Source: Candidatus Micrarchaeota archaeon (GTDB taxonomy: Archaea; Micrarchaeota; Micrarchaeia; Anstonellales; Bilamarchaeaceae). From it: a stretch of DNA of 64,000 nt. The notes beneath the pieces were generated by a model, which was not told where the DNA came from, made no database searches, and saw only the letters and a program-made list of their open reading frames with translations. This document shows, one piece after another, positions 2,474 through 47,237 of the stretch (its first letter is position 1; each line of letters begins with the position of its first letter). Position numbers and translations under genes: made by a program. The stretch spans positions 1,582 through 65,581 of the forward strand of contig JBDRLQ010000023.1 of the NCBI GenBank assembly GCA_043812915.1. The letters are read 5' to 3'.

Positions 2474-2620
2474 TTGAAACGATGCATTACATGCGGAAAG
2501 AATACCAAGGATTTCGCGGAATTCCCGTGCCCTAGCTGCGGGGAGAAGGTTTGCAGATGCTGCTACTGCAGGGAGAATCGGAACGCATATGAGTGTTCCT
2601 GCGGCTTCGTCGGCCCATAG
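2474..2620 (+). CDS. Zn-ribbon RNA-binding protein of the family usually encoded next to aEF-1beta (COG2888-like)
   Basis: KRCITCGKNTKDFAEFPCPSCGEKVCRCCYCRENRNAYECSCGFVGP has four Cys pairs and the terminal CGF.GP. AGGTGGT SD sits just upstream. Start is TTG at 2471 or 2474 (uncertain). Immediately precedes aEF-1beta. Confidence 0.6.
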   Translation: MKRCITCGKNTKDFAEFPCPSCGEKVCRCCYCRENRNAYECSCGFVGP

Positions 2621-2629
2621 GTGGATTCG

Positions 2630-2887
2630 ATGGCAGAACTAAACGTATCGGCAACGCTCAAGATTTTTGTGGACAATCCAGCGAAGATGGACGCCGTCAA
2701 GGCCGCCATTGAGCAGGTTGTCAAGGTTCAGAAATTCGATGAAATGGACGTCGGCTTCGGAATCAAGGCCCTGAAGGCATACGTCCTCATGGCTGATGAC
2801 GAAGGGGGAATGGACAAACTCGAATCCCAGATTAAGGAAATCGACGGTGTAAGCCAGATGGAAGTCGAGGAAGTCGGCAGGATATAG
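2630..2887 (+). CDS. ef1b: translation elongation factor aEF-1 beta
   Basis: 85-aa MAELNVSATLKIFVDNPAKMDAVKAAIE...GFGIKALKAYVLMADDEGGMDKLESQIKEIDGVSQMEVEEVGRI has typical aEF-1beta length and sequence. AGGTGGA SD lies 5 nt upstream of the ATG at 2630. Confidence 0.85.
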   Translation: MAELNVSATLKIFVDNPAKMDAVKAAIEQVVKVQKFDEMDVGFGIKALKAYVLMADDEGGMDKLESQIKEIDGVSQMEVEEVGRI

Positions 2888-2896
2888 GTGGATTTG

Positions 2897-3553
2897 ATGG
2901 CAAAGAAGAAGGACAAGAAGGAAAAGAAGAACGCTAAAAAAGATATTAAAAAGAAAGAGAAAGAAAGAGAAAAAGAGGAAAGAGAAAAAGAATCGAAGCC
3001 GGCAAAGAAGCCGGAGAAGAGGGTCCCTTTGAAAGGAGATGAGAGTGAGGGCTTCAGGGGAATCGTCCGTATCGCTGGAAAGGATATCAAGGGACACGTT
3101 CCACTCAAGCGCTCATTTCTCAGGGTGCGGGGAATCAGCCATGGATTGGCAAACTCCGCCGCGTCCGTAGTCCGCTCGGAGTTGGGAATCTCCCCGGACA
3201 TGAAGGTCGGTGAGCTCACAGACGAGCAGATTGAGAAAATCGATAAGATTCTCTTCAATCTGGAGAATCACAATATACCCGTGTTCATACTCAACCGTAG
3301 GTCTGATTTTGACAGCGGAAAGCCCCGCCACGTCATCATGAACGACCTGGTATTCACAGAGAGCCAGGACGTAGAGAGGATGAAGAAGGAGTACACCTGG
3401 AAAGGGTACAGGCACGCATACGGCCAGAAGGTCCGCGGTCAGAAGACGCGGAACACTGGCAGAAAGGGTATGGCAGTCGGTGTCCTCAGGAAGGCGATTA
3501 TTGCCCAGCAGAAAGGCGCCGCCAAGAAGGATGAAAAAGGCGGCAAGAAGTAG
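2897..3553 (+). CDS. rps13: 30S ribosomal protein uS13 with K/E-rich N-terminal extension
   Basis: Core is FRGIVRIAGKDIKGHVPLKRSFLRVRGIS...WKGYRHAYGQKVRGQKTRNTGRKG. AGGTGGA SD precedes the ATG at 2897. About 50 aa of K/E-rich sequence precede the conserved core. Confidence 0.9.
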   Translation: MAKKKDKKEKKNAKKDIKKKEKEREKEEREKESKPAKKPEKRVPLKGDESEGFRGIVRIAGKDIKGHVPLKRSFLRVRGISHGLANSAASVVRSELGISPDMKVGELTDEQIEKIDKILFNLENHNIPVFILNRRSDFDSGKPRHVIMNDLVFTESQDVERMKKEYTWKGYRHAYGQKVRGQKTRNTGRKGMAVGVLRKAIIAQQKGAAKKDEKGGKK

Positions 3554-3561
3554 GTGTTCAT

Positions 3562-4206
3562 ATGGGAGATCCAAGAAGACTGAGAAATAAGTTCGACCGC
3601 CCCAAGAAGCTTTGGGAAAAGGACAGAATCAAGCACGACAAGGGCCTTAAGGCCGAGTATGGCCTCAAGAGCATGAACGAGCTCTTCGCGGTCACTGAGC
3701 ACCTCAAGAAATACAGGCGTGAGGCCAGGCGTATGCTTGCTCTTACCCATGAAGCGAGGGGGAAGGACGAGCAGAAGATTCTTGCCAAACTCGCCAGGAT
3801 GGGTGTGATGAAGCCCGGCTCCAGGATAGAGGATATCCTTGCCCTTGATGTCCGCGTATTCCTTGAGAGGAGGCTGCAGACCATCGTCCATAGGAAAGGC
3901 CTTGCAAGGACCACAAGGCAGGCGAGGCAGCTTATCACGCACGGCTTTATTTCAATCGACGGCAGGAAGAACAACACCCCCGGATATATGGTGACTGCTG
4001 ATGAGGATGCATCAATCATGTATTCGAAGCCTATCGACATCAGCGTGCCCACTGAAGAGGATGTTGCGGCTGAATCCGCTCCCAAGGCCGAAGGCGCACC
4101 TGCTGCGGCAAAGCCCGCGGAGGCGCCGGAGGAAGACGCCCCTGAAGAGGCTGCTGCAAAGCCTGCAGAGGCGGCAATGCCAGAAGAGGCGCCCAAGGGG
4201 GCTTAA
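3562..4206 (+). CDS. rps4: 30S ribosomal protein uS4 with A/E/P-rich C-terminal tail
   Basis: [41 protein letters not shown]...[33 protein letters not shown] is upstream. Confidence 0.9.
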
Positions 4207-4216
4207 GGTGATATTT

Positions 4217-4753
4217 ATGGCTGAAAAGAAAGAAGAGAAAACCGAAGAGAAGGCCAAGAAGGCTGAGGAAAATGAGGCGCCGGCAGAGGAAGCAGAGGAT
4301 GCTCCGAATGAAGAGGCCAAGGAAGAGGCGAATGCCGAAGAGAAGCCTGCCGAAGCCACTAAGAAGAGGAGAACCAAGGTGGCAGTCGTCCATGTGTTCT
4401 CCTCCAAGAACGATACAATCATCACCGCAACAGACATCAGCGGCGCCGAGACCCTTGCGTGGGCGAGCGGTGGAATGGTCGTCAAGTCCCACAGGGAAGA
4501 GGGAAGGCCCTACGCTGCCATGCAGGCCGCGACAAGGGTAATCAACAGCCTGAAGGACAAGGGCGTATATCTAGTTCATGTGAGAATAAGGGCTCCTGGA
4601 GGAGTAGGCTCAAAGACTCCGGGCGGAGGCGCCCAGGCGGTCGTCAGGACCATCGCAAGAACCGGTGTCCGCATTGGAAGGATTGAGGATGTCACTCCGC
4701 TTCCGACAGACTCGATGAAGAGGAAAGGCGGAAGAAGAGGAAGGAGAGTATAG
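4217..4753 (+). CDS. rps11: 30S ribosomal protein uS11 with E/K/A-rich N-terminal extension
   Basis: Core is [37 protein letters not shown]...[36 protein letters not shown] precedes the ATG at 4217. The track ORF 4001..4753 extends upstream into the rps4 3' end and is not used. Confidence 0.9.
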
Positions 4754-4768
4754 TCCCGAGGTTTTTTG

Positions 4769-5428
4769 ATGAACTTAGTACTGGAGAAAAAACACGAAAA
4801 CCGGATAGAGTTTTTGGTGGATGGCATAACTTCCGGGTTTGCCAACATGATACGCAGATATTCGATATCCAGGATACCAGTGCTTGCAATCGACACCGTC
4901 GTCTTCTACGACAATTCAAGCCCGTTCTGGGACGAGTACATCGCCCACAGGCTGGGCCTCATGCCGATAATAACCCCTGCGAAGACTGCGGAGGGCACAG
5001 AGGTGCTATTCTCGCTTGACGCGGCCGGCCCCAAGGTTGTTTATTCGGGAGACATGAAGAGCTCGGATGACTCCATCAAGATGGGACAGGAGAAGATAGT
5101 CATAGCCACTTTGGGCGAGAACCAGACCCTCAGGTTCGAGGGGAAGGCAGTCGTCGGCACAGCGCAGACGCATGCCAGGTTCCAGTCCGGCCTCATGGCT
5201 TACGGGGAAAAAGACGGCAAATTCAAGTTCTTCGTTGAGAGCTTCTACCAGATGACTCCGAAAGAGGTTGTCAAGAGGGGCTGCGAAGTGATTGAGAGGG
5301 ACATCGATACAGTCATCAATGGCGTATCGAAGAAGCCCAAGAAGGCGGCAACAAAGAAAACGGCCGCCAAGAAGGGGACAAAGAAGTCCACGAAGAAGAA
5401 AGAGGAAACAAAAGAAAAAGAAGAATAG
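4769..5428 (+). CDS. rpoD: DNA-directed RNA polymerase subunit D (Rpo3) with K-rich C-terminal tail; no Fe-S cluster Cys motif seen
   Basis: MNLVLEKKHENRIEFLVDGITSGFANMIRRYSISRIPVLAIDTVVFYDNSSPFWDEYIAHRLGLMPI. Position after S13-S4-S11 is the archaeal order. Confidence 0.85.
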   Translation: MNLVLEKKHENRIEFLVDGITSGFANMIRRYSISRIPVLAIDTVVFYDNSSPFWDEYIAHRLGLMPIITPAKTAEGTEVLFSLDAAGPKVVYSGDMKSSDDSIKMGQEKIVIATLGENQTLRFEGKAVVGTAQTHARFQSGLMAYGEKDGKFKFFVESFYQMTPKEVVKRGCEVIERDIDTVINGVSKKPKKAATKKTAAKKGTKKSTKKKEETKEKEE

Positions 5429-5465
5429 GTGCCCTTATCTTTTAGGGCATTTTTAAGTTTTACAC

Positions 5466-5551
5466 GCAGGGGTGACAGAGCCTGGTCAAATGTGCTAGGT
5501 TGAGGGCCTAGTCGGTTAGTCCGTGCAAGTGTTCGAATCACTTCCCCTGCA
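5466..5551 (+). tRNA. tRNA-Leu (anticodon GAG), long variable arm
   Basis: GCAGGGG...CTAGG TT-GAG-GG CCTAG TCGGTTAGTCCGTGC AAGTG TTCGAAT CACTT CCCCTGC A. Acceptor, anticodon and T arms pair perfectly, and the class II variable arm is present. Confidence 0.9.
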
Positions 5552-5595
5552 CTTTATTTTTATCCTGGAAAAGACTTAGCGTTCGCCATATCTCC

Positions 5596-6330
5596 CTATC
5601 CAAAGAGCAGGAAGCTTACTGCCCCCAAGATTGCCCCCAAGAGGGCAAAGAGCAGGTACCCGACAGGCAGGAACAGGATGACCATCCCCGAATATGAAGG
5701 ATTGAAGGAGATGAGCAAATCCCCGATAATGAAGAGGTTCAGCGCGAACGGGAAAATCAGGAAGAGCAAAGATGCTCCTATGGCAGCTTCAAGCATATCC
5801 ATGCTGTTTGCTCCGACGATGAACGCCTCCCCAAGCAATGAGAGGGCGAAAACGGCAAGCGCGGTGTAGGTGATAACCAAGGCCGCAGAGCGCCTGCCCT
5901 CCGGAACATTATCTTTCCTATAATACACGATGCGGTTTACCAGGAAGGCGATTACGATGGCCGAGGTGGGGAGGATGGAGAGCAGGGCTAGCAGGGGCAT
6001 CATGCCTTTTTCCAAGACCACTGGGATTATGGCTGCCAGGCTGGGCGACATCGCCAGCATCAGCACGAAAATGAAAACAGGCATCGCTAGCGGGACTCCG
6101 ATGATGACAAGCTCGTTGGCGAACGCGATATTCATCCTGGAGAACAGGAACAGCTTTATCCCGGCGATGATGCAGACTGCGAAAACCAGCATGAATGCCA
6201 GGTCCGGAGAAACAAGCCCTAAGATTGCGCGGTGGCTGACCGCTGCTGTCAGCATGGCCAGCATCATTAGGCAAAGCAGCATGAACCCGACCAGCTTTGA
6301 TTGCTTATTTGATAACACCGCATTTGGCAT
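5596..6330 (-). CDS. hypothetical multi-pass membrane protein
   Basis: 244-aa ORF that is almost entirely hydrophobic helices. No motif recognised. Confidence 0.5.
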   Translation of the reverse strand: MPNAVLSNKQSKLVGFMLLCLMMLAMLTAAVSHRAILGLVSPDLAFMLVFAVCIIAGIKLFLFSRMNIAFANELVIIGVPLAMPVFIFVLMLAMSPSLAAIIPVVLEKGMMPLLALLSILPTSAIVIAFLVNRIVYYRKDNVPEGRRSAALVITYTALAVFALSLLGEAFIVGANSMDMLEAAIGASLLFLIFPFALNLFIIGDLLISFNPSYSGMVILFLPVGYLLFALLGAILGAVSFLLFG

Positions 6331-6798
6331 TTATATGACCTTCATGATTTTGTCCTTGTTCACCAGCGACTCATATGCTCCGCCGGCAACAAACTCGAAA
6401 TTCGATTGGAGGAACACAATCAACTTCCCAGAGCCAAAGTCCGCCCCTCCATTGTATTCCGGGCGGATTGTCGATTTTGATACCCCCTCGATATATATTT
6501 TCCTGTGAGCCTCCATATCCATCGATGTAAACGGGGCGACTATTTCAATCTCCTTCTTCAGCCGCAACCCACCTCTGTTCACGAGTTCTTCTAGCACCCT
6601 ATATCTATATGTGACCTTTCTGAAGGGTGGGCATTTCTTCTTATCTTCATGCAGCTCAACCATCTCGACTTTCTCGAAGGGCCTCAGCCTTTCAACTACT
6701 AGGATGTAGGTCGAATGCGAAACCAGCTCCTCCAGCGAAATCTCCTGCGGCATTTCTAGCGACATCCACTTCTTATCTGCAACAAGATACTTTAACAT
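6331..6798 (-). CDS. hypothetical protein
   Basis: 155-aa ORF abutting the downstream membrane gene (its last base is 6331, the next start is 6330). Composition is protein-like. No motif recognised. Confidence 0.45.
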   Translation of the reverse strand: MLKYLVADKKWMSLEMPQEISLEELVSHSTYILVVERLRPFEKVEMVELHEDKKKCPPFRKVTYRYRVLEELVNRGGLRLKKEIEIVAPFTSMDMEAHRKIYIEGVSKSTIRPEYNGGADFGSGKLIVFLQSNFEFVAGGAYESLVNKDKIMKVI

Positions 6799-7113
6799 TT
6801 GCGCCTTCCATTGAACTGTCCTTACGGGTCAAGAAATGGCGGAATTGCCGGGTAATATGGCAGGGCGGAATTCATGAATTAGGCAGAGACGCTTTTTGAT
6901 GAATCTGAAGGCCTGGCGATGCCAATAAAGGATGATTATGGCAGGGCATCTGCCCTGAGGAAGGGTTTTCAACATGCATCCTGGCAACCTGAAAAAAGAG
7001 CAATAATGATGCTAGAAACAGTGACACTGGAGGCAAAATCAAGGACAAGAGGCCAGATCAGAAATTCATTGCGGCATTGTCTATGAATACTACCAACATC
7101 GCCATGAGGCTAA

Positions 7114-8172
7114 TCATTCGGCATTTTCTTCCTGGGCAGCCCTTCCGTCCACTCCGAACCTTCCATACCTGCCGTAATTTTCGGTCTCGTCCTGCTTTTC
7201 CAGCTCCCTTTTCACGCAGTAGCTCCTCTCGAATCCTTCAGGAAGGCGTGTTAGCCCTAGCCGCTTGAAGCTGCCGTTTTCCACATTGTGCTTCAAATGC
7301 CTGCACACCCATTCCATCCTGTGCATGCCCGGAACATCCCTCCTTTCCCAGGCCCTACGCTCCTCTTCATTGCAGTTCCCTCTCCAGTCCCAGATGAGTT
7401 CGGAATAATATACATCCAGGGATTTGAGCTGCTCATGGCTCATATTGGGCCTAAAATCACAGAGCTTCATGCTGGCGTCCATCCTGTTCTGGAAGCCGAG
7501 CAGGGTATCGAAAAGTGACGCGATGTCCTCCGCGTGCCCGATGTCCATCCTGCCCCCTGGCCTGTTGACCATGCCGACAAGGGTGACTGCCGTGTGCGGC
7601 ATGGTGTGAAGAAGCCTGTATGTGGCCGGGAACCTCTTTGGCCGCAAAGATATGGCGACCCTCCTGCCTGCAAGCAGCTTCTCATTTCGGTCTGCGAAAT
7701 TCCTGCTGGTCTCCAGGACTTCCGCTACGTTCGGGTACATAAGCGACCCGTTCGAATACTTGGCTTTCGTGAAATGCTCGATATACCCCTCCGGCGTTTC
7801 CCTGTCCGAGCCCTTCGGGCGAATCTTGTACAGCGCAATCGAGCCCTCAATCATCTCCACCAGCATCTTGTCGCTGCTAAGCCCCCTTCCTGAATCGAAT
7901 GGGGGGCCGAAGTAAGCCTCATTGAGTCGGTCGAAACACAAGTCCCAGGTTTCCTCCGGGAATGAGTTGTTCTTCTGGAATGCCTTGGAAACATCCAGGG
8001 GCTCTGTAATACGCTCCTGCGGCTCCTGCCCGTTCCCGCAGCAGAGCAGTCCTGTAATCGTCACCGGGGCGAGCATCCTGCCCGTCCAGGCGGCAATCCT
8101 TCTGGGCAATGGCACTTTGGGGGGATGGGCCTCACAGCTTTTCAGTTTCCGTGGAATACACTCGGATTTCAC
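7114..8172 (-). CDS. hypothetical protein (start uncertain: GTG 8172, leaderless, or ATG 8076)
   Basis: The long track ORF 7114..8427 overlaps the upstream gene 8232..8921. A TATAAAAC box lies about 28 nt upstream of the in-frame GTG at 8172. No family recognised. Confidence 0.45.
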   Translation of the reverse strand: MKSECIPRKLKSCEAHPPKVPLPRRIAAWTGRMLAPVTITGLLCCGNGQEPQERITEPLDVSKAFQKNNSFPEETWDLCFDRLNEAYFGPPFDSGRGLSSDKMLVEMIEGSIALYKIRPKGSDRETPEGYIEHFTKAKYSNGSLMYPNVAEVLETSRNFADRNEKLLAGRRVAISLRPKRFPATYRLLHTMPHTAVTLVGMVNRPGGRMDIGHAEDIASLFDTLLGFQNRMDASMKLCDFRPNMSHEQLKSLDVYYSELIWDWRGNCNEEERRAWERRDVPGMHRMEWVCRHLKHNVENGSFKRLGLTRLPEGFERSYCVKRELEKQDETENYGRYGRFGVDGRAAQEENAE

Positions 8173-8231
8173 GATATTCTGTAGCAAAATACGTTTTATA
8201 ATGGTATCAGAAAAAGGAGAAAAAAAGAAAA

Positions 8232-8921
8232 TCAGAGGTGGAGAAGGTATCTCTTCTCCACATTGACATACTTTCCTATATGGAATGCCTTGTCCACCGT
8301 GTTCAGCACATTGGTGAATGCCACATAGCTTCCTGCTATTCCAAGCGCGAACAGTCCGCGCTCGAAGGCTACGACCGGAATAAGCGCAAGCCAGGCCTCC
8401 GCGGGCATGGGTATGGTGTACAGCCAAACCACGCTGCCGATGCAGTGGGCGGTGAATGTCGCGCCAAGGCTTCTTAGCACCAGGTTGTCAGGAAGGAACT
8501 TCGCCGCAACTGGGATAATCCACCATAGCGCGTATATCCAAGCGGCCTGCCCGGTCGGGTGGAGCCAGAACGCGAGCATGGCAAGAACCGGCACCGCCAC
8601 CCCAAGGATGTCCTTTATTCCCCTCAGCCAGTTGCGCCCGAAATAAAGGGCTGCAAAGACCATTGGCAGGAGCCGAAGAAGGTTGATGGCTGTGATTTCC
8701 TTGCCGACAAGCACATAATCCACTATCTGGGCGCCGAGAACTGCGACGCCGCCGAAAATCCCGAGGAACCCTCCGGCAATCGGTCCGAAGAACTGGTACA
8801 ATGTGAAGAATTGGTTCTCCTGGCCTATTATCGAAGAGAAGTTAATCTGCATCCCAACAAGCGCAAGCGCCGTGAATAGCGCCAGGAACAGAAGTCCTTT
8901 TCTGGAAATGATATTATGCAT
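8232..8921 (-). CDS. hypothetical multi-pass membrane protein
   Basis: 229-aa hydrophobic ORF (..FGPIAGGFLGIFGGVAVLGAQIVDY..). No family recognised with confidence. Confidence 0.55.
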   Translation of the reverse strand: MHNIISRKGLLFLALFTALALVGMQINFSSIIGQENQFFTLYQFFGPIAGGFLGIFGGVAVLGAQIVDYVLVGKEITAINLLRLLPMVFAALYFGRNWLRGIKDILGVAVPVLAMLAFWLHPTGQAAWIYALWWIIPVAAKFLPDNLVLRSLGATFTAHCIGSVVWLYTIPMPAEAWLALIPVVAFERGLFALGIAGSYVAFTNVLNTVDKAFHIGKYVNVEKRYLLHL

Positions 8922-9070
8922 TTTTACACCTCTCGAATGAATAATCAGTACTTAGCCATACGTAAATATCTTTATTAAGGTTTTTGGCGGGCGCGGTTTC
9001 CAGGGGCGTTTCCTATATTCTTATAGGAATAATATTTTCAGAAGTAAATAAATATGGAATTTTTTCATTC

Positions 9071-10180
9071 ATGTCCATGACAAGGGGAAGTTTGCGGATA
9101 TACGGTTTTGTAAGGAAGGGGATTGAGCAGGCAAAAGCCGCCGCGTCAGCCGGAAGGCAGAGGATGCGGGCCGCTGCCATCGCTTTCAGGAAACCCTCTC
9201 TTTTAGAGCAGCAAACCGAAACGAAGAAAGCGACGATAGTGCTCGCGACGGACTGGGGGGCTGACGGCGCAGAGACCAATATCGAGAGCCAGATCGAGGC
9301 CTTGTCATCCGGCCTTGGCATGGATGTCTCGATAAAACGGATACCCGGCTTCGCCCCGCTCTCCAGCCCGCTTCCATGCGCGGTCGAGCTTGACCGGATT
9401 ATCACCACGCACAGGATCACATCCGAGCTCCTTGTCCGGACACTTAGAAATGAGGGGCTCCCGGATGGGGAAATCAGGAAAAGGCTGAGCCTGCTGACGC
9501 TTGTTAATGTGTTTGACCGGAAGGTCGGAAGCGGGAGGGTAGCCGGGATAGTGAAAGGTTACATGCCTCTTCTTGATGGGGAATTCACAATCCAGGTCAA
9601 TCTTATCGGCCCGCTCAACAACGGCATCATACGCGCCCTCTCGAGGAGGCTCCGCGACTGCCAGTGCCATGAGCTTGCAAATCCTGAGTTCCAGGTCGAT
9701 GAGCTTGGCTGCAAGACCTGGGACGGAAGGGCCAAGTTCGGCCCGGCAGCAGTTTTCTCATCGTACGGAATAAGTCCCTCTGAGTTCGGGCCCGGGATTG
9801 ATCTTGGCGCGTTCCCTGAAATCTCCTTCCGCGCTTCCATGGATGGCACGATTGCCGAAGTGCCCGTTGTGACTGTGGATGAAATCGGGAATCTGGTGAC
9901 TGGCATAGACAATGGCAGCCTTGGTGGGCTTGGCGAAATCCTCAGCCTGTCCGGCCCGCATGGGTCGCTCCTAGCAAGGAAGGGGGAGAAGTTCGATGAC
10001 GTTCCGGAGGGCGAAGCGGTATTCTACGCGGGCTCCAAGGGGCTAATAGAGGTCGCTGTGAATATGGGCAGCGCGGCTGAAAGCCTCGGAATCGGCCCTG
10101 GGAGCCTTGAGCTTGATGGTGGTGAATCAGCCCTTATCCTCAGGGCTAAGAATATGGGGAGCATCACGGTCGCTGCCTGA
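9071..10180 (+). CDS. SAM hydroxide adenosyltransferase (DUF62 / chlorinase-fluorinase fold)-like protein, unusually long
   Basis: N-terminal ATIVLATDWGADG and C-terminal FYAGSKGLIEVAVNMGSAAESLGIGPGS resemble DUF62 hallmarks (..TDFG.. and ..G.LEIAVN.GSAA..LG...G). Start ATG 9071 was chosen downstream of an AT-rich TATA-like tract. Confidence 0.5.
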   Translation: MSMTRGSLRIYGFVRKGIEQAKAAASAGRQRMRAAAIAFRKPSLLEQQTETKKATIVLATDWGADGAETNIESQIEALSSGLGMDVSIKRIPGFAPLSSPLPCAVELDRIITTHRITSELLVRTLRNEGLPDGEIRKRLSLLTLVNVFDRKVGSGRVAGIVKGYMPLLDGEFTIQVNLIGPLNNGIIRALSRRLRDCQCHELANPEFQVDELGCKTWDGRAKFGPAAVFSSYGISPSEFGPGIDLGAFPEISFRASMDGTIAEVPVVTVDEIGNLVTGIDNGSLGGLGEILSLSGPHGSLLARKGEKFDDVPEGEAVFYAGSKGLIEVAVNMGSAAESLGIGPGSLELDGGESALILRAKNMGSITVAA

Positions 10181-44064: not shown

Positions 44065-46096
44065 GCTAAAAACTGGAAGTAATTCTTCAAGACGAAAGTC
44101 TTGATGAGTGAGAACCATCTTAGCAGAGGTTAATTTGCTGATACAAACCACATAGTGGATGGCTGGGCTGAGGCCCGCACGGCCACGCGGCAAGCGGCGA
44201 AACGCCCTGGGTAGACGCACGCAGTCTTTGATCCAGGGATCTGGCGGTGCACAGTAATGTGCAGTAACCCACCGAAATGAAGCATCTTAGTAGGTGGAGG
44301 AAGAGAAACCAATTGGGATCCGGATAGTAACAGCGAGTGAAATTCGGAGAGATCAAGCTGAATTCCATTGCGGTAACGCAGTGGTAGATGTGGCGGGGAG
44401 TATCCTTTCTGTGAGCAGAAGTCGGCTGGAATGCCGTACCATAGCGAGTAATAGTCTCGTATGCGAAGCAGTGGAGGAGTGATCCAATGAAGAGTAGCGT
44501 ACCCCGGTTAGGGTGCGTGAATATGGGTGCATCAACATCCAAATCTAAACATGAGGCCTTAGACCGATAGCGAAATAGTAGCGCGAGCGAATGCTGAAAA
44601 GCACCGGGGGACCGGTGTGAAAAGAACCTGAAATTATGTGGTGACATTATGGTATGGCACGAAAGGGATTAGGACAATGGAAGCGACTGTTGGTAACGGC
44701 AGGAGCGACATTGTTTAACCGGTGTCATATCTTCCTTCTCGAAGCAAGAACCAAGGAGTTAATGGATGTGGCAAGACGAAAGTCGAAGCGAAAGCAAGCG
44801 CCCGCAGCAGGCTTGTCCTGTCAGGGGCATCGTGGTAACTCGCGATCAGTCACATTCATCAGACCCGAAGCCATAGTGATCTACGCCTGAACAGGGCGAA
44901 GTCAACCTGACGGTTGATGGAGGCCCGCAACTAGTGGTGGTATATTCCCCTTAGGTGATTTGGGTGTAGGGGTGATAGTCCTGTCGAACATGGCGATAGC
45001 GGGTTCCCTTCGAAATGTGTCTTAGCACAGCGTCTCCTGAGAATTATATAGCGGTAGAGCACCGATTAGGCGGAGCGGCCCCGAGAGGGGTCACCATCTT
45101 CTCAAACTCCGAATGCTGTATATTCTAAGACGGAGGCAGTGGGGATTGCGGAGTAAGTCCGTAGTCCCTTACGGGAAAGACCGTACGCAAGGCTAAGGAC
45201 CCTAAATGCTGGTTAAGTGTTAATCATCAAGGAGTCTCTACTCAAAGACAACCGGGAGGTAGGCTCAGAAGCAGCCACCCTCTAAACAACGCGTAATAGC
45301 GGACCGGTCGAGAGTGCAGATTCTTAAAATTCACGGGGCTAAACCAGCTTCCGATACCTTGCCAGAGCCAAAAGCTCATGTGTAGGGGGGCGAACGGGTT
45401 GCGCCGAAGCGCGGTGGTAACATCGTGTGGAGCGGCCTGTTATGAACATCTTGGTGTTAGTAGCAGCATATCCGGATGAGAATTCCGGACACCTCATAGA
45501 GCAAGGATTCCTCAGCCACGTTCTTCAGCTGAGGGTTAGGCGATCCTAAGGGCCATGGTAAAACCTGAAGCCCGAAATCAGGGAATCCGGTTAATATTCC
45601 GGACCTATATGGGTAGGCGCGGTAACGCAAGCCTACTTCTTACGCCTTTGGATATGTGAAGCGGCTTCGGCCGTCTGATAGAAGTAACTCCGTGGAGTCT
45701 CATTGTGAGGAGAAGCGGATGAAATCTTTAGGGGAAACTTCATTGAGTCCGGGGGTCCATGAAAAGTGAAGTAGGAACGATCCCATATAATCGTACCCAG
45801 AACCAGTACAGGTGCTCTAGCTGAAAAGGCTAAGGTGTGACAGGATAACCCAAGCAAGGGAACTCGGCAAGTTAGCCCTGTACCTTTGGTAGAAGGGGTG
45901 CCTTCGCATGCGTAATGTGGAGGTCGCAGTGACAAGTGGAGTGCGACTGTTTACCAAAAACACAGGTCATCGCAGAGCGGAAACGCTGAGTATGATGGCT
46001 GACGTCTGCTCACTGCCAGTACCTGAACACCGGTTTCAACCGGGAGAAGGGCTGGTAAAGAGCGGGGGTAACTCTGACCCTCTTAAGGTAGCGTAA

Positions 46097-46224
46097 ACAA
46101 GGCCAAGAATCATGTTTACATGAGGATTGCCTTGAGTTTGCGGTAATTGTTGCCAAAAGCAAGTCGTTAAAGTAGTGAGGAAATCCTCGATCTATATCCT
46201 TAACCGGATATGGCCTTGACGTAA
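46097..46224 (+). other. archaeal bulge-helix-bulge intron (128 nt, no ORF) in 23S domain IV
   Basis: Removing it restores the conserved GGTAGCGTAATACCTCGCCGCTTAATTGGCGGCTTGCATGAATG. Outer helix is AGGTA/TACCT, central 4-bp helix GCGT/ACGT, bulges AAA and AA(T), inner helix CAAGGCC/GGCCTTG. The boundary is ambiguous by up to 5 nt because CGTAA is repeated. Confidence 0.8.
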
Positions 46225-46750
46225 TACCTCGCCGCTTAATTGGCGGCTTGCATGAATGACGTAACGTCGCTCCAACTGTCCCTGCTTGGGACCTGGTGAA
46301 CTCACTGCCCGGTGAAGATGCCGGGGACTTCCAGAGGGAAACGAAGACTCCATGGAGCTTTACTATAGCCTGATGTTGTGATATTGAGTTGGCTACACAG
46401 TGTAAGTGGGAGCCGTTAAGCTGTGCCTTCCGGGGTACAGATAGGCAAAAGTGTAACACCACTTAGTTAGTTCGATATTGCTTACCCGCAAGGGGACAGC
46501 GTCAGGTGGATAGTTTGGCTGGGGCGGTACGCCCTCGAAAAGGAAACAAGGGCGCCCAATGTTCTGCTCATGCCGGTCAGAAATCGGCAGTAGAGGGTTA
46601 AAGACAAATGCAGGGCTGACTGTATTTCTCATAGTATGGAATGCAGAGACGAAAGTCGGGCTTAACGAACCTTGAAATCCCTTTGATGAGGATTCAAGCT
46701 GTCAGACAAGCTACCCTGGAGGTAACAGGCTCGTCGCGGGCGAGAGTACA

Positions 46751-46800
46751 CTGCGATGTAGTCAAAACGTTTCTTTTGAACTAGGACTACTTCGCGTGCG
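46751..46800 (+). other. 50-nt insertion in the 23S domain V H89 apical region: mini-intron or expansion hairpin
   Basis: GAGAGTACA[50 nt]TATCGAC interrupts the conserved GAGAGT.CATATCGAC string. The insert forms a ~10-bp stem (GCGA-GTAGTC / GACTAC-TCGC with one U-U mismatch). No canonical BHB could be drawn. Confidence 0.5.
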
Positions 46801-47237
46801 TATCGACCCCGCGGTTTGGTACATCGCTGTCGGCTTGGGATATCCTGGCCGTGTAGGAGCGGCCAAGGGTTGGGTTGTTCATCCATCAAAATCCCACATG
46901 AGCTGGGTTCAGTACGTCGCGAGACAGTACGGTAGTATCTCCTGGAAGTGTTGTCTCTTGAAAGGAAGGATCCTTGAGTACGAGAGGAACGGGGATCCGG
47001 CGCCTCTAGTCTACCGGTTGTGAATTGCATTGCCGGGCAGCCACGCGCCAACCGATAAGACCTGAAAGCATCTAAGGTCGAAGCGGCTCTTAAAACGAGG
47101 AGACATACCGCAGATAACAGATCTGTTTGATAGGACCATGGTGTAAGACGCTAGGTTCGCCGAGCGTTTCAGCCAGTGGTTACTAACGGTTTACTTCAAA
47201 GAATTCAACCTTTGCGGATGGTCCTTCTGGTTTTTGT

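Follow-up and report, generated by a model that had tools for sequence, protein, structure and literature searches.

The 23S rRNA gene of Aeropyrum pernix harbors an intron devoid of any open reading frame (ORF). Archaeal rRNA introns spliced at motifs of the bulge-helix-bulge (BHB) type, including short ORF-less ones, have been known since 1985-1991 (PMC3608112), and two short ORF-less introns were described in the 23S gene of Staphylothermus marinus (Kjems & Garrett 1991, as cited in PMC3608112). Stable circular forms of excised rRNA introns occur in Desulfurococcus mobilis and Pyrobaculum, according to the summary by Danan et al. 2012 (PMC3326292). In addition, both BHB and group I introns have been reported from the LSU genes of Micrarchaeota, Woesearchaeota and Pacearchaeota (Nawrocki, Jones & Eddy 2018, PMC6125680); that paper gives 1923, 1931, 2500 and 2593 as group I sites, with 1923, 1931 and 2593 as those of the Micrarchaeota LSU genes, alongside BHB introns. 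Introns also occur in the 16S genes of ARMAN-2 and Mia14 (PMC5498576), and the tRNA introns of ARMAN-2 are cleaved by an ε2-type EndA (Fujishima 2011, PMC3239211; Hirata 2012, PMC3488258).

The 23S rRNA gene in which the 128-nt insertion described here is found belongs to a Micrarchaeota-like DPANN archaeon. With high confidence, the insertion is an archaeal protein-spliced BHB intron, excised and circularised. Like the crenarchaeal ORF-less 23S introns, it is short, lacks a protein gene, presents a BHB motif at its junctions and would be removed by the tRNA splicing endonuclease; its host, however, is a DPANN archaeon equipped with an ε2 endonuclease. As in D. mobilis and Pyrobaculum, excision of the rRNA intron is followed by its closure into a circular RNA, but the introns of these organisms are large, ORF-bearing (e.g., with I-DmoI) and reported as stable, whereas the present one is ORF-less, measures 128 nt and amounts to some 0.1-0.5% of the rRNA depth, assuming that the abundant strain carries it. 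The introns of Nawrocki et al. belong to the same lineage and occupy the same H69-H71 hotspot; the available sections of their paper contain neither BHB sites nor RNA evidence for excision or circles, in contrast to the circle documented below. The ARMAN-2 tRNA introns are served by the type of enzyme that is encoded here, which tolerates relaxed BHB motifs, but those substrates are tRNAs instead of an rRNA; neither paper assays the enzyme on rRNA, and the word "rRNA" occurs 0 times in PMC3488258.

The window, i.e., the whole 64-kb stretch of DNA that was analysed, contains neither a 16S nor a 5S gene, so that the 23S gene is unlinked there. The gene and its insertion are located as follows.

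44129-47205, + strand: host 23S rRNA gene (Rfam RF02540, 2327.7 bits, model positions 1-2987)
46097-46224, + strand: ORF-less intron of 128 nt, missing from the LSU model, absent from the same-genus genome G001 and others, and represented by a circular 158-nt RNA contig

The alignment to the Rfam model LSU_rRNA_archaea omits about 129 nt near model position 2031, exactly at the place of the insertion. For the comparison with empty sites, the homologous stretch was taken from 60 related genomes. The sole other species of the genus (G001) reads GGGGTAACTCTGACCCTCTTAAGGTAGCGTAATACCTCGCCGCTTAATTGG continuously, as do many relatives, and the uninterrupted empty site GGTAGCGTAATACCTCG occurs in this species and in many members of the family. 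Since the intronless relatives read CTCTTAAGGTAGCGTAATACCTCGCCGC at this place, the length of the insertion is exactly 128 nt, between GCGTAA and TACCTC. The initial annotation had stated that the conserved string after H69 is interrupted by 128 nt and had proposed an alignment to an LSU covariance model as a check; both this alignment, once run, and the intronless relatives agree with the statement. Its view that the intron has no homing-endonuclease ORF likewise stands, as no ORF is contained inside the 128 nt, and the four overlapping ORFs of at least 20 aa all extend into the exon. No Rfam family matched the intron at E <= 10.

Using the annotated E. coli 23S gene for numbering, corrected by +2 and anchored on ψ1911, ψ1915, ψ1917 and m5U1939, the insertion is placed between A1938 and U1939, within the conserved H69-H71 stretch of domain IV, just after H69; this stretch is drawn unpaired at the site in the Rfam consensus. 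The site 1938/1939 was not found in the literature compared, and no novelty is claimed for it. The 5 nt CGTAA end both the 5' exon and the insertion, and because of this repeat six registers are possible from the comparison of sequences alone.

The junctions form a BHB fold, the elements of which are given below together with the internal helices of the intron.

46086-46090, + strand: outer (exon-exon) helix, 5' strand AGGUA, paired with 46225-46229 and invariant in 10 homologs
46091-46094, + strand: central 4-bp helix, 5' strand GCGU in the exon, paired with 46219-46222, kept in 9 of 10 homologs, with intron-side changes G-U/G-C and U-G/U-A
46095-46097, + strand: 5' bulge AAA, unpaired in the RNAalifold consensus and invariant, with a predicted cut at 46096/46097 that would leave GCGUAA at the end of the exon, the sequence also present in intronless relatives
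46098-46104, + strand: inner (intron-intron) helix, 5' strand CAAGGCC, paired with 46212-46218, one pair of which varies between C-G, U-A and U-G
46122-46126, + strand: internal long-range helix, 5' strand GAGGA, paired with UCCUC at 46184-46188 and invariant in 10 homologs
46184-46188, + strand: internal helix, 3' strand UCCUC, from the homolog alignment
46194-46211, + strand: terminal hairpin, AUAUCC...GGAUAU, which stacks upon the inner helix and shows compensatory changes (C-G/U-A in 4 sequences, U-A/C-G in 2)
46212-46218, + strand: inner helix, 3' strand GGCCUUG, from the pairing check and homologs
46219-46222, + strand: central helix, 3' strand ACGU in the intron, from the pairing check and homologs
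46223-46225, + strand: 3' bulge AA(U), 2 nt left unpaired by the consensus (8 homologs with AA, 2 with AU), with a predicted cut at 46224/46225 and the exon start UACCU
46225-46229, + strand: outer helix, 3' strand UACCU, from the pairing check and homologs

The outer helix comprises 5 bp and the inner helix 7 bp, the latter reaching 9 bp in homologs. All of the base pairs named in the initial annotation are standard pairs, and the fold it proposed as a textbook substrate of the archaeal splicing endonuclease is recovered by RNAalifold in the homologs; the word "textbook" is nevertheless slightly too strong, as the 3' bulge consists of the two nucleotides AA (46223-46224) and becomes the 3-nt AAU only when the pair A46090-U46225 opens, which leaves A46090 unpaired. 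The motif is thus mildly relaxed at the 3' site. With the exception of a strict 3-nt bulge at this site, the intron displays the testable defining features of the BHB class.

A strict BHB motif, defined by a 4-bp center, a 7-bp inner and a 5-bp outer helix, occurs a single time in the whole 23S gene. Dinucleotide-shuffled genes contain 0.22 of them per gene, at any place; for a motif to fall on the two junctions that homology sets independently, the chance is on the order of 1e-7. Because the only strict motif of the gene sits on junctions that homology fixes independently, it is not due to chance. In BHB motifs, each strand is cleaved after the second nucleotide of its bulge, at a distance of 2 nt beyond the central helix. 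Applied to the present motif, this rule predicts cuts after A46096 and after A46224, 128 nt apart, which regenerate the intronless sequence: the joined ends, GGTAGCGTAA followed by TACCTCG, match the alleles with an empty site exactly. That CGUAA recurs at the junctions just reflects the two-fold symmetry of the substrate, one strand of which carries GCGU-AA and the other ACGU-AA.

The fold constrained to the BHB motif has an energy of -45.1 kcal/mol, against -46.1 kcal/mol for the unconstrained minimum free energy fold of 46080-46240, in which the 5' junction pairs with an internal copy of GCCUUG instead. This copy belongs to the internal GCCUUGAG at 46129-46136, which duplicates the 3' end of the intron and, by a pairing of about 12 bp with the 5' junction, hides the 5' splice site in the minimum free energy fold. 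A role of this pairing as a switch was considered and dropped, only its AAGG/CCUU part being conserved in the homologs. The isolated intron is predicted to close through its inner helix.

Homologous introns were collected within the family with a covariance model built from 6 same-site introns and searched in 99 family genomes. A BLAST search with the intron alone across the order had returned weak partial hits only, L034 and L037 showed no intron at the site, and the covariance model was used in its place. The intron occurs in 10 of the 99 genomes, distributed over 5 of 23 genera, and each match corresponds to one copy per genome, of full length and at site 1938/1939 every time. A class-wide pattern search for the 5' junction added a single genome, G053, which is discussed below; the matches to the pattern in G129 and G308 lie within protein-coding sequence and were discarded as due to chance. 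With 6 as well as with 10 homologs, RNAalifold, unguided, returns the same BHB motif. In the central helix, the exon half is fixed and the intron half retains the pairing (G-U in 6 and G-C in 4 sequences, U-G in 6 and U-A in 3), the single A·G mismatch corresponding to the genome whose exon reads GCGA. One pair of the inner helix appears as C-G, U-A or U-G across the homologs, and several double changes affect the terminal hairpin. The extent of covariation is limited by the fact that half of the BHB motif is invariant exon sequence and, similarly, the invariance of the internal GAGGA/UCCUC in the 10 homologs offers no covariation for or against its pairing. A C/D-box guide RNA inside the intron was also considered and rejected, inspection of the homolog alignment by eye having revealed no conserved C/D boxes (RUGAUGA, CUGA).

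With respect to the splicing enzymes, two proteins of the genome match tRNA_int_endo (PF01974). One of them, an EndA of 391 aa (L038:889-2061), matches the PDB entries 4fz2 and 9w2k over its full length (E 1.1e-130), and conserves all four key residues of the ARMAN-2 enzyme (Y236/H251/K282 and K161). The entry 4FZ2 represents the endonuclease of ARMAN-2 (Candidatus Micrarchaeum acidiphilum), of the three-unit ε2 kind, an enzyme that cleaves strict as well as relaxed BHB motifs (PMC3488258). On the basis of this resemblance, the genome is assigned an ε2-type splicing endonuclease and, as enzymes of this type accept relaxed BHB motifs, the relaxed 3' bulge of the intron lies within its expected range. 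The second EndA-like protein, of 165 aa (L039:1294-1788, in G000:C3), matches PF01974 at E 1.5e-11; its gene accompanies that of the ε2 enzyme. The ligase RtcB (PF01139) is present as well. At a run of five A (ggaaaaagc; L041:2036-2049, in G000:C16, about 101524-101537), its gene passes from one reading frame into a second, overlapping one. The break is probably a homopolymer error of the assembly, since the organism would depend on tRNA splicing; if real, it would matter, because the genome relies on RtcB for the splicing of both tRNA and rRNA.

Evidence at the RNA level was sought in contigs, not reads, from four public runs (X1, X2, X3 and X9) placed on 45600-46700, so that rare exon-intron junctions may be lost; the depths are means per contig. 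In the groundwater metatranscriptome X1, exon contigs free of mismatches reach depths of 8,212, 9,600, 2,530, 3,777 and 5,218, and differ from every sampled relative by 1-17 mismatches each. The most specific of them, 96 nt long (45714-45809, depth 8,212), has 17 mismatches to the best relative and the others 1-6; to judge from these differences, the exon contigs most likely come from the source species or from a closely related strain. Inside the intron, both bins have a depth of 13 and are covered by a sole X1 contig, of 158 nt and equally free of mismatches. This contig covers 46092-46204 and then passes from 46219 back to 46092 (it "goes back 128"), with 45 letters on its short side and 5 ambiguous letters, the ambiguity resulting from the CGTAA repeat. 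A 128-nt circle assembled with words of 31 letters is expected to yield a contig of 128 + 30 = 158 nt, as observed. RNA therefore contains the intron in the form of a circle of 128 nt, or of a read-through of such a circle. The initial annotation had expected the release of a small, probably circular RNA and had suggested looking for its junction in RNA, and a contig that crosses from the 3' end to the 5' end of the intron is precisely what X1 contains. At about 0.1-0.5% of the rRNA level, again if the abundant strain carries the intron, the circle looks like a by-product and not like an abundant stable RNA.

The joint between the exons (contigs that "skip 128") was found in the RNA run X3 and among the loose ends of X1, but also in the DNA-type runs X9 and X2. 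The 66 nt that flank the site are, moreover, identical in many intronless relatives, and for both reasons the spliced junction was rejected as organism-specific evidence and cannot be credited to splicing in the source organism. The DNA run X9 leaves the intron and 45600-46043 uncovered, a gap that carries no weight. A contig of X3 that bridges 46206-46249 ("skips 100, between not known") was set aside, as it probably derives from the homologous intron of a relative, in precursor RNA or in DNA.

These data also bear on what else the 128 nt could be. A segment retained in the mature 23S rRNA as an expansion would have been continuous with the exons at full depth across both junctions, the outcome that the initial annotation had named as its refutation; instead, the interior of the intron has a depth of 13 as compared to 2,530-9,600 for the species-specific exon contigs of the same RNA run. 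The existence of a circular junction and the distribution of the insertion, absent from the same-genus relative and present in 10 of the 99 family genomes, further oppose this explanation, in favor of which only the presence of the insertion itself can be cited, and which is accordingly considered very improbable. Somewhat less remote, though still quite improbable, is an excision without ligation of the exons, leaving a 23S rRNA in two pieces held in the ribosome as in the bacterial 23S rRNAs fragmented by intervening sequences. It would account for the lack of an exon-to-exon contig attributable to the source organism and agrees with the interrupted frame of RtcB in the assembly, but the intron is circularised, which means that a ligase acts on the same cleavage products, and contigs of the exon-exon junction exist in RNA, both in X3 and, among the loose ends, in X1. 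In archaea, RtcB is known to join both the exons and the intron produced by BHB cleavage, and this established knowledge also speaks against a 23S rRNA in two pieces.

The cores of introns of group I or group II far exceed 128 nt. A degenerate self-splicing intron of either group, or another known structured RNA, residing in the rRNA gene is therefore hardly credible, the more so as the insertion has no match in Rfam at E <= 10 and its junctions build a BHB motif and not a pairing of the P1/P10 type. The point in its favor is the occurrence of group I introns at the nearby sites LSU/1923 and LSU/1931 of Micrarchaeota, listed by Nawrocki et al. 2018 (PMC6125680).

As a protein-spliced BHB intron, the insertion would be transcribed within the pre-23S rRNA, where AGGUA/UACCU, exon GCGU with intron ACGU, and CAAGGCC/GGCCUUG are predicted to fold into a helix-bulge-helix-bulge-helix arrangement, conserved in the homologs. 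Following the BHB rule, the ε2-type endonuclease would cleave both strands 2 nt beyond the central helix, behind A46096 on one and behind A46224 on the other, positions consistent with both the empty sites and the length of the circle. RtcB would join the exons into GCGUAA-UACCU and, as the presumed ligase, would close the intron into the 128-nt circle that is seen in RNA.

Concerning the origin of the intron, G053, a genome of a neighboring family, contains an 803-nt intron exactly at site 1938/1939, with the same central helix and bulges and an inner helix, CAGAAUUAUAU/AUAUAAUUCUG, which differs wholly in sequence and is still complementary. Between the short introns and that of G053, no similarity was found beyond the bases obliged to pair with the exon. 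The G053 intron holds an ORF of 233 aa with LAGLIDADG-like motifs recognized by eye; its best Pfam match, LAGLIDADG_3 (E 0.06), and a LAGLIDADG entry of the PDB (E 0.23) are both weak, a comparison to NCBIfam gave nothing useful, and an AlphaFold model from the single sequence (pLDDT 50) was too poor for a fold search, so that its identity as a LAGLIDADG enzyme is not established. A second ORF-bearing intron of G053, of about 735 nt (L054:1276-1974), is inserted after GGCGGCUU, some 25 nt further downstream, and its 233-aa ORF is paralogous to that of the 1938/1939 intron (35% identity, E 8e-16). At the position of this second intron, a similar insertion occurs in G044 and shorter ones (45-54 nt) in G045 and G046. 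The presence of an ORF-bearing intron at the same site fits the usual cycle of invasion with a homing endonuclease gene and subsequent loss of this gene, and the 128-nt intron, itself devoid of a gene, is probably related to ORF-bearing introns inserted at the site, or a leftover of them.

The short introns form two subtypes, the distribution of which cuts across genera. In G100, a member of genus g20, the intron shows a likeness of 74% to the introns of g13 and of 46-50% to those of its congeners, whereas its exons reverse this pattern, being 93% like those of the congener G102 and 82% like those of g13 (local identities). Tests comparing the intron and exon trees gave p-AU values of 0.015 (post hoc, for the intron data against the monophyly of g20), 0.088 and 0.090, and are only suggestive of intron transfer. 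With such values, a movement of the intron between lineages, or an old polymorphism, is no more than a possibility. A more far-reaching proposal makes the 128-140-nt family a gene-less mobile RNA element instead of a mere relic, the conserved internal blocks of which (GAGGA...UCCUCG, GCCUUGAG and GAGUUGC) would be under selection for a role played by the circular RNA. An example of such a role would be movement between Micrarchaeota lineages without a homing endonuclease, e.g., by reverse splicing of the circle into an intronless rRNA and subsequent recombination. The hints come from the subtypes that cross genus boundaries, the conflict between intron and exons in G100 and the p-AU of 0.015, and the proposal is regarded as improbable.

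Other insertions occur in the rRNA genes of this genome and of the family. The 23S gene that holds the intron has a further insertion, of about 50 nt (46751-46800); located between GAGAGUACA and UAUCGAC near the peptidyl-transferase region, it folds as a stem, and the LSU model skips 52 nt there. The 16S gene of the genome measures 1583 nt for a model of 1478 positions and contains an insertion of 38 nt (L042:2589-2626, in G000:C4) between GUGGUGUG and ACUGUCC, at about model position 1018, which may be a mini-intron. Within the family, the 30 nt upstream of site 1938/1939 are a hotspot of introns. Insertions of about 280-700 nt follow CCCUC in L007, L011, L016, L019 and L029 and AAGGU in L013, close to the group I sites LSU/1923 and LSU/1931 given by Nawrocki et al. 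(PMC6125680), and the introns of about 700 nt in L007 and L013 gave no Rfam group I match at the gathering score. Mini-insertions of 37-47 nt follow UUAA in L017, L018, L022, L023, L024 and L032, and G131 possesses a mini-insertion 11 nt upstream of its own 1938/1939 intron.

The intron belongs to a known class and leaves the knowledge of archaeal splicing unchanged in concept. Its main value resides in the direct RNA evidence that, in a DPANN archaeon not in culture, a BHB intron is cut out of the rRNA and circularised, which links an rRNA substrate to an ε2-type endonuclease, a type studied so far on tRNA. The 10 gene-less introns, together with the ORF-bearing one at the same site, constitute a set for questions on the loss of homing endonuclease genes and on continued mobility. 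For the organism itself, the mature 23S rRNA would be 128 nt shorter than its gene and, for the family, the H69-H71 segment is a hotspot of introns, which is expected to disturb rRNA alignments, primers and phylogenies.
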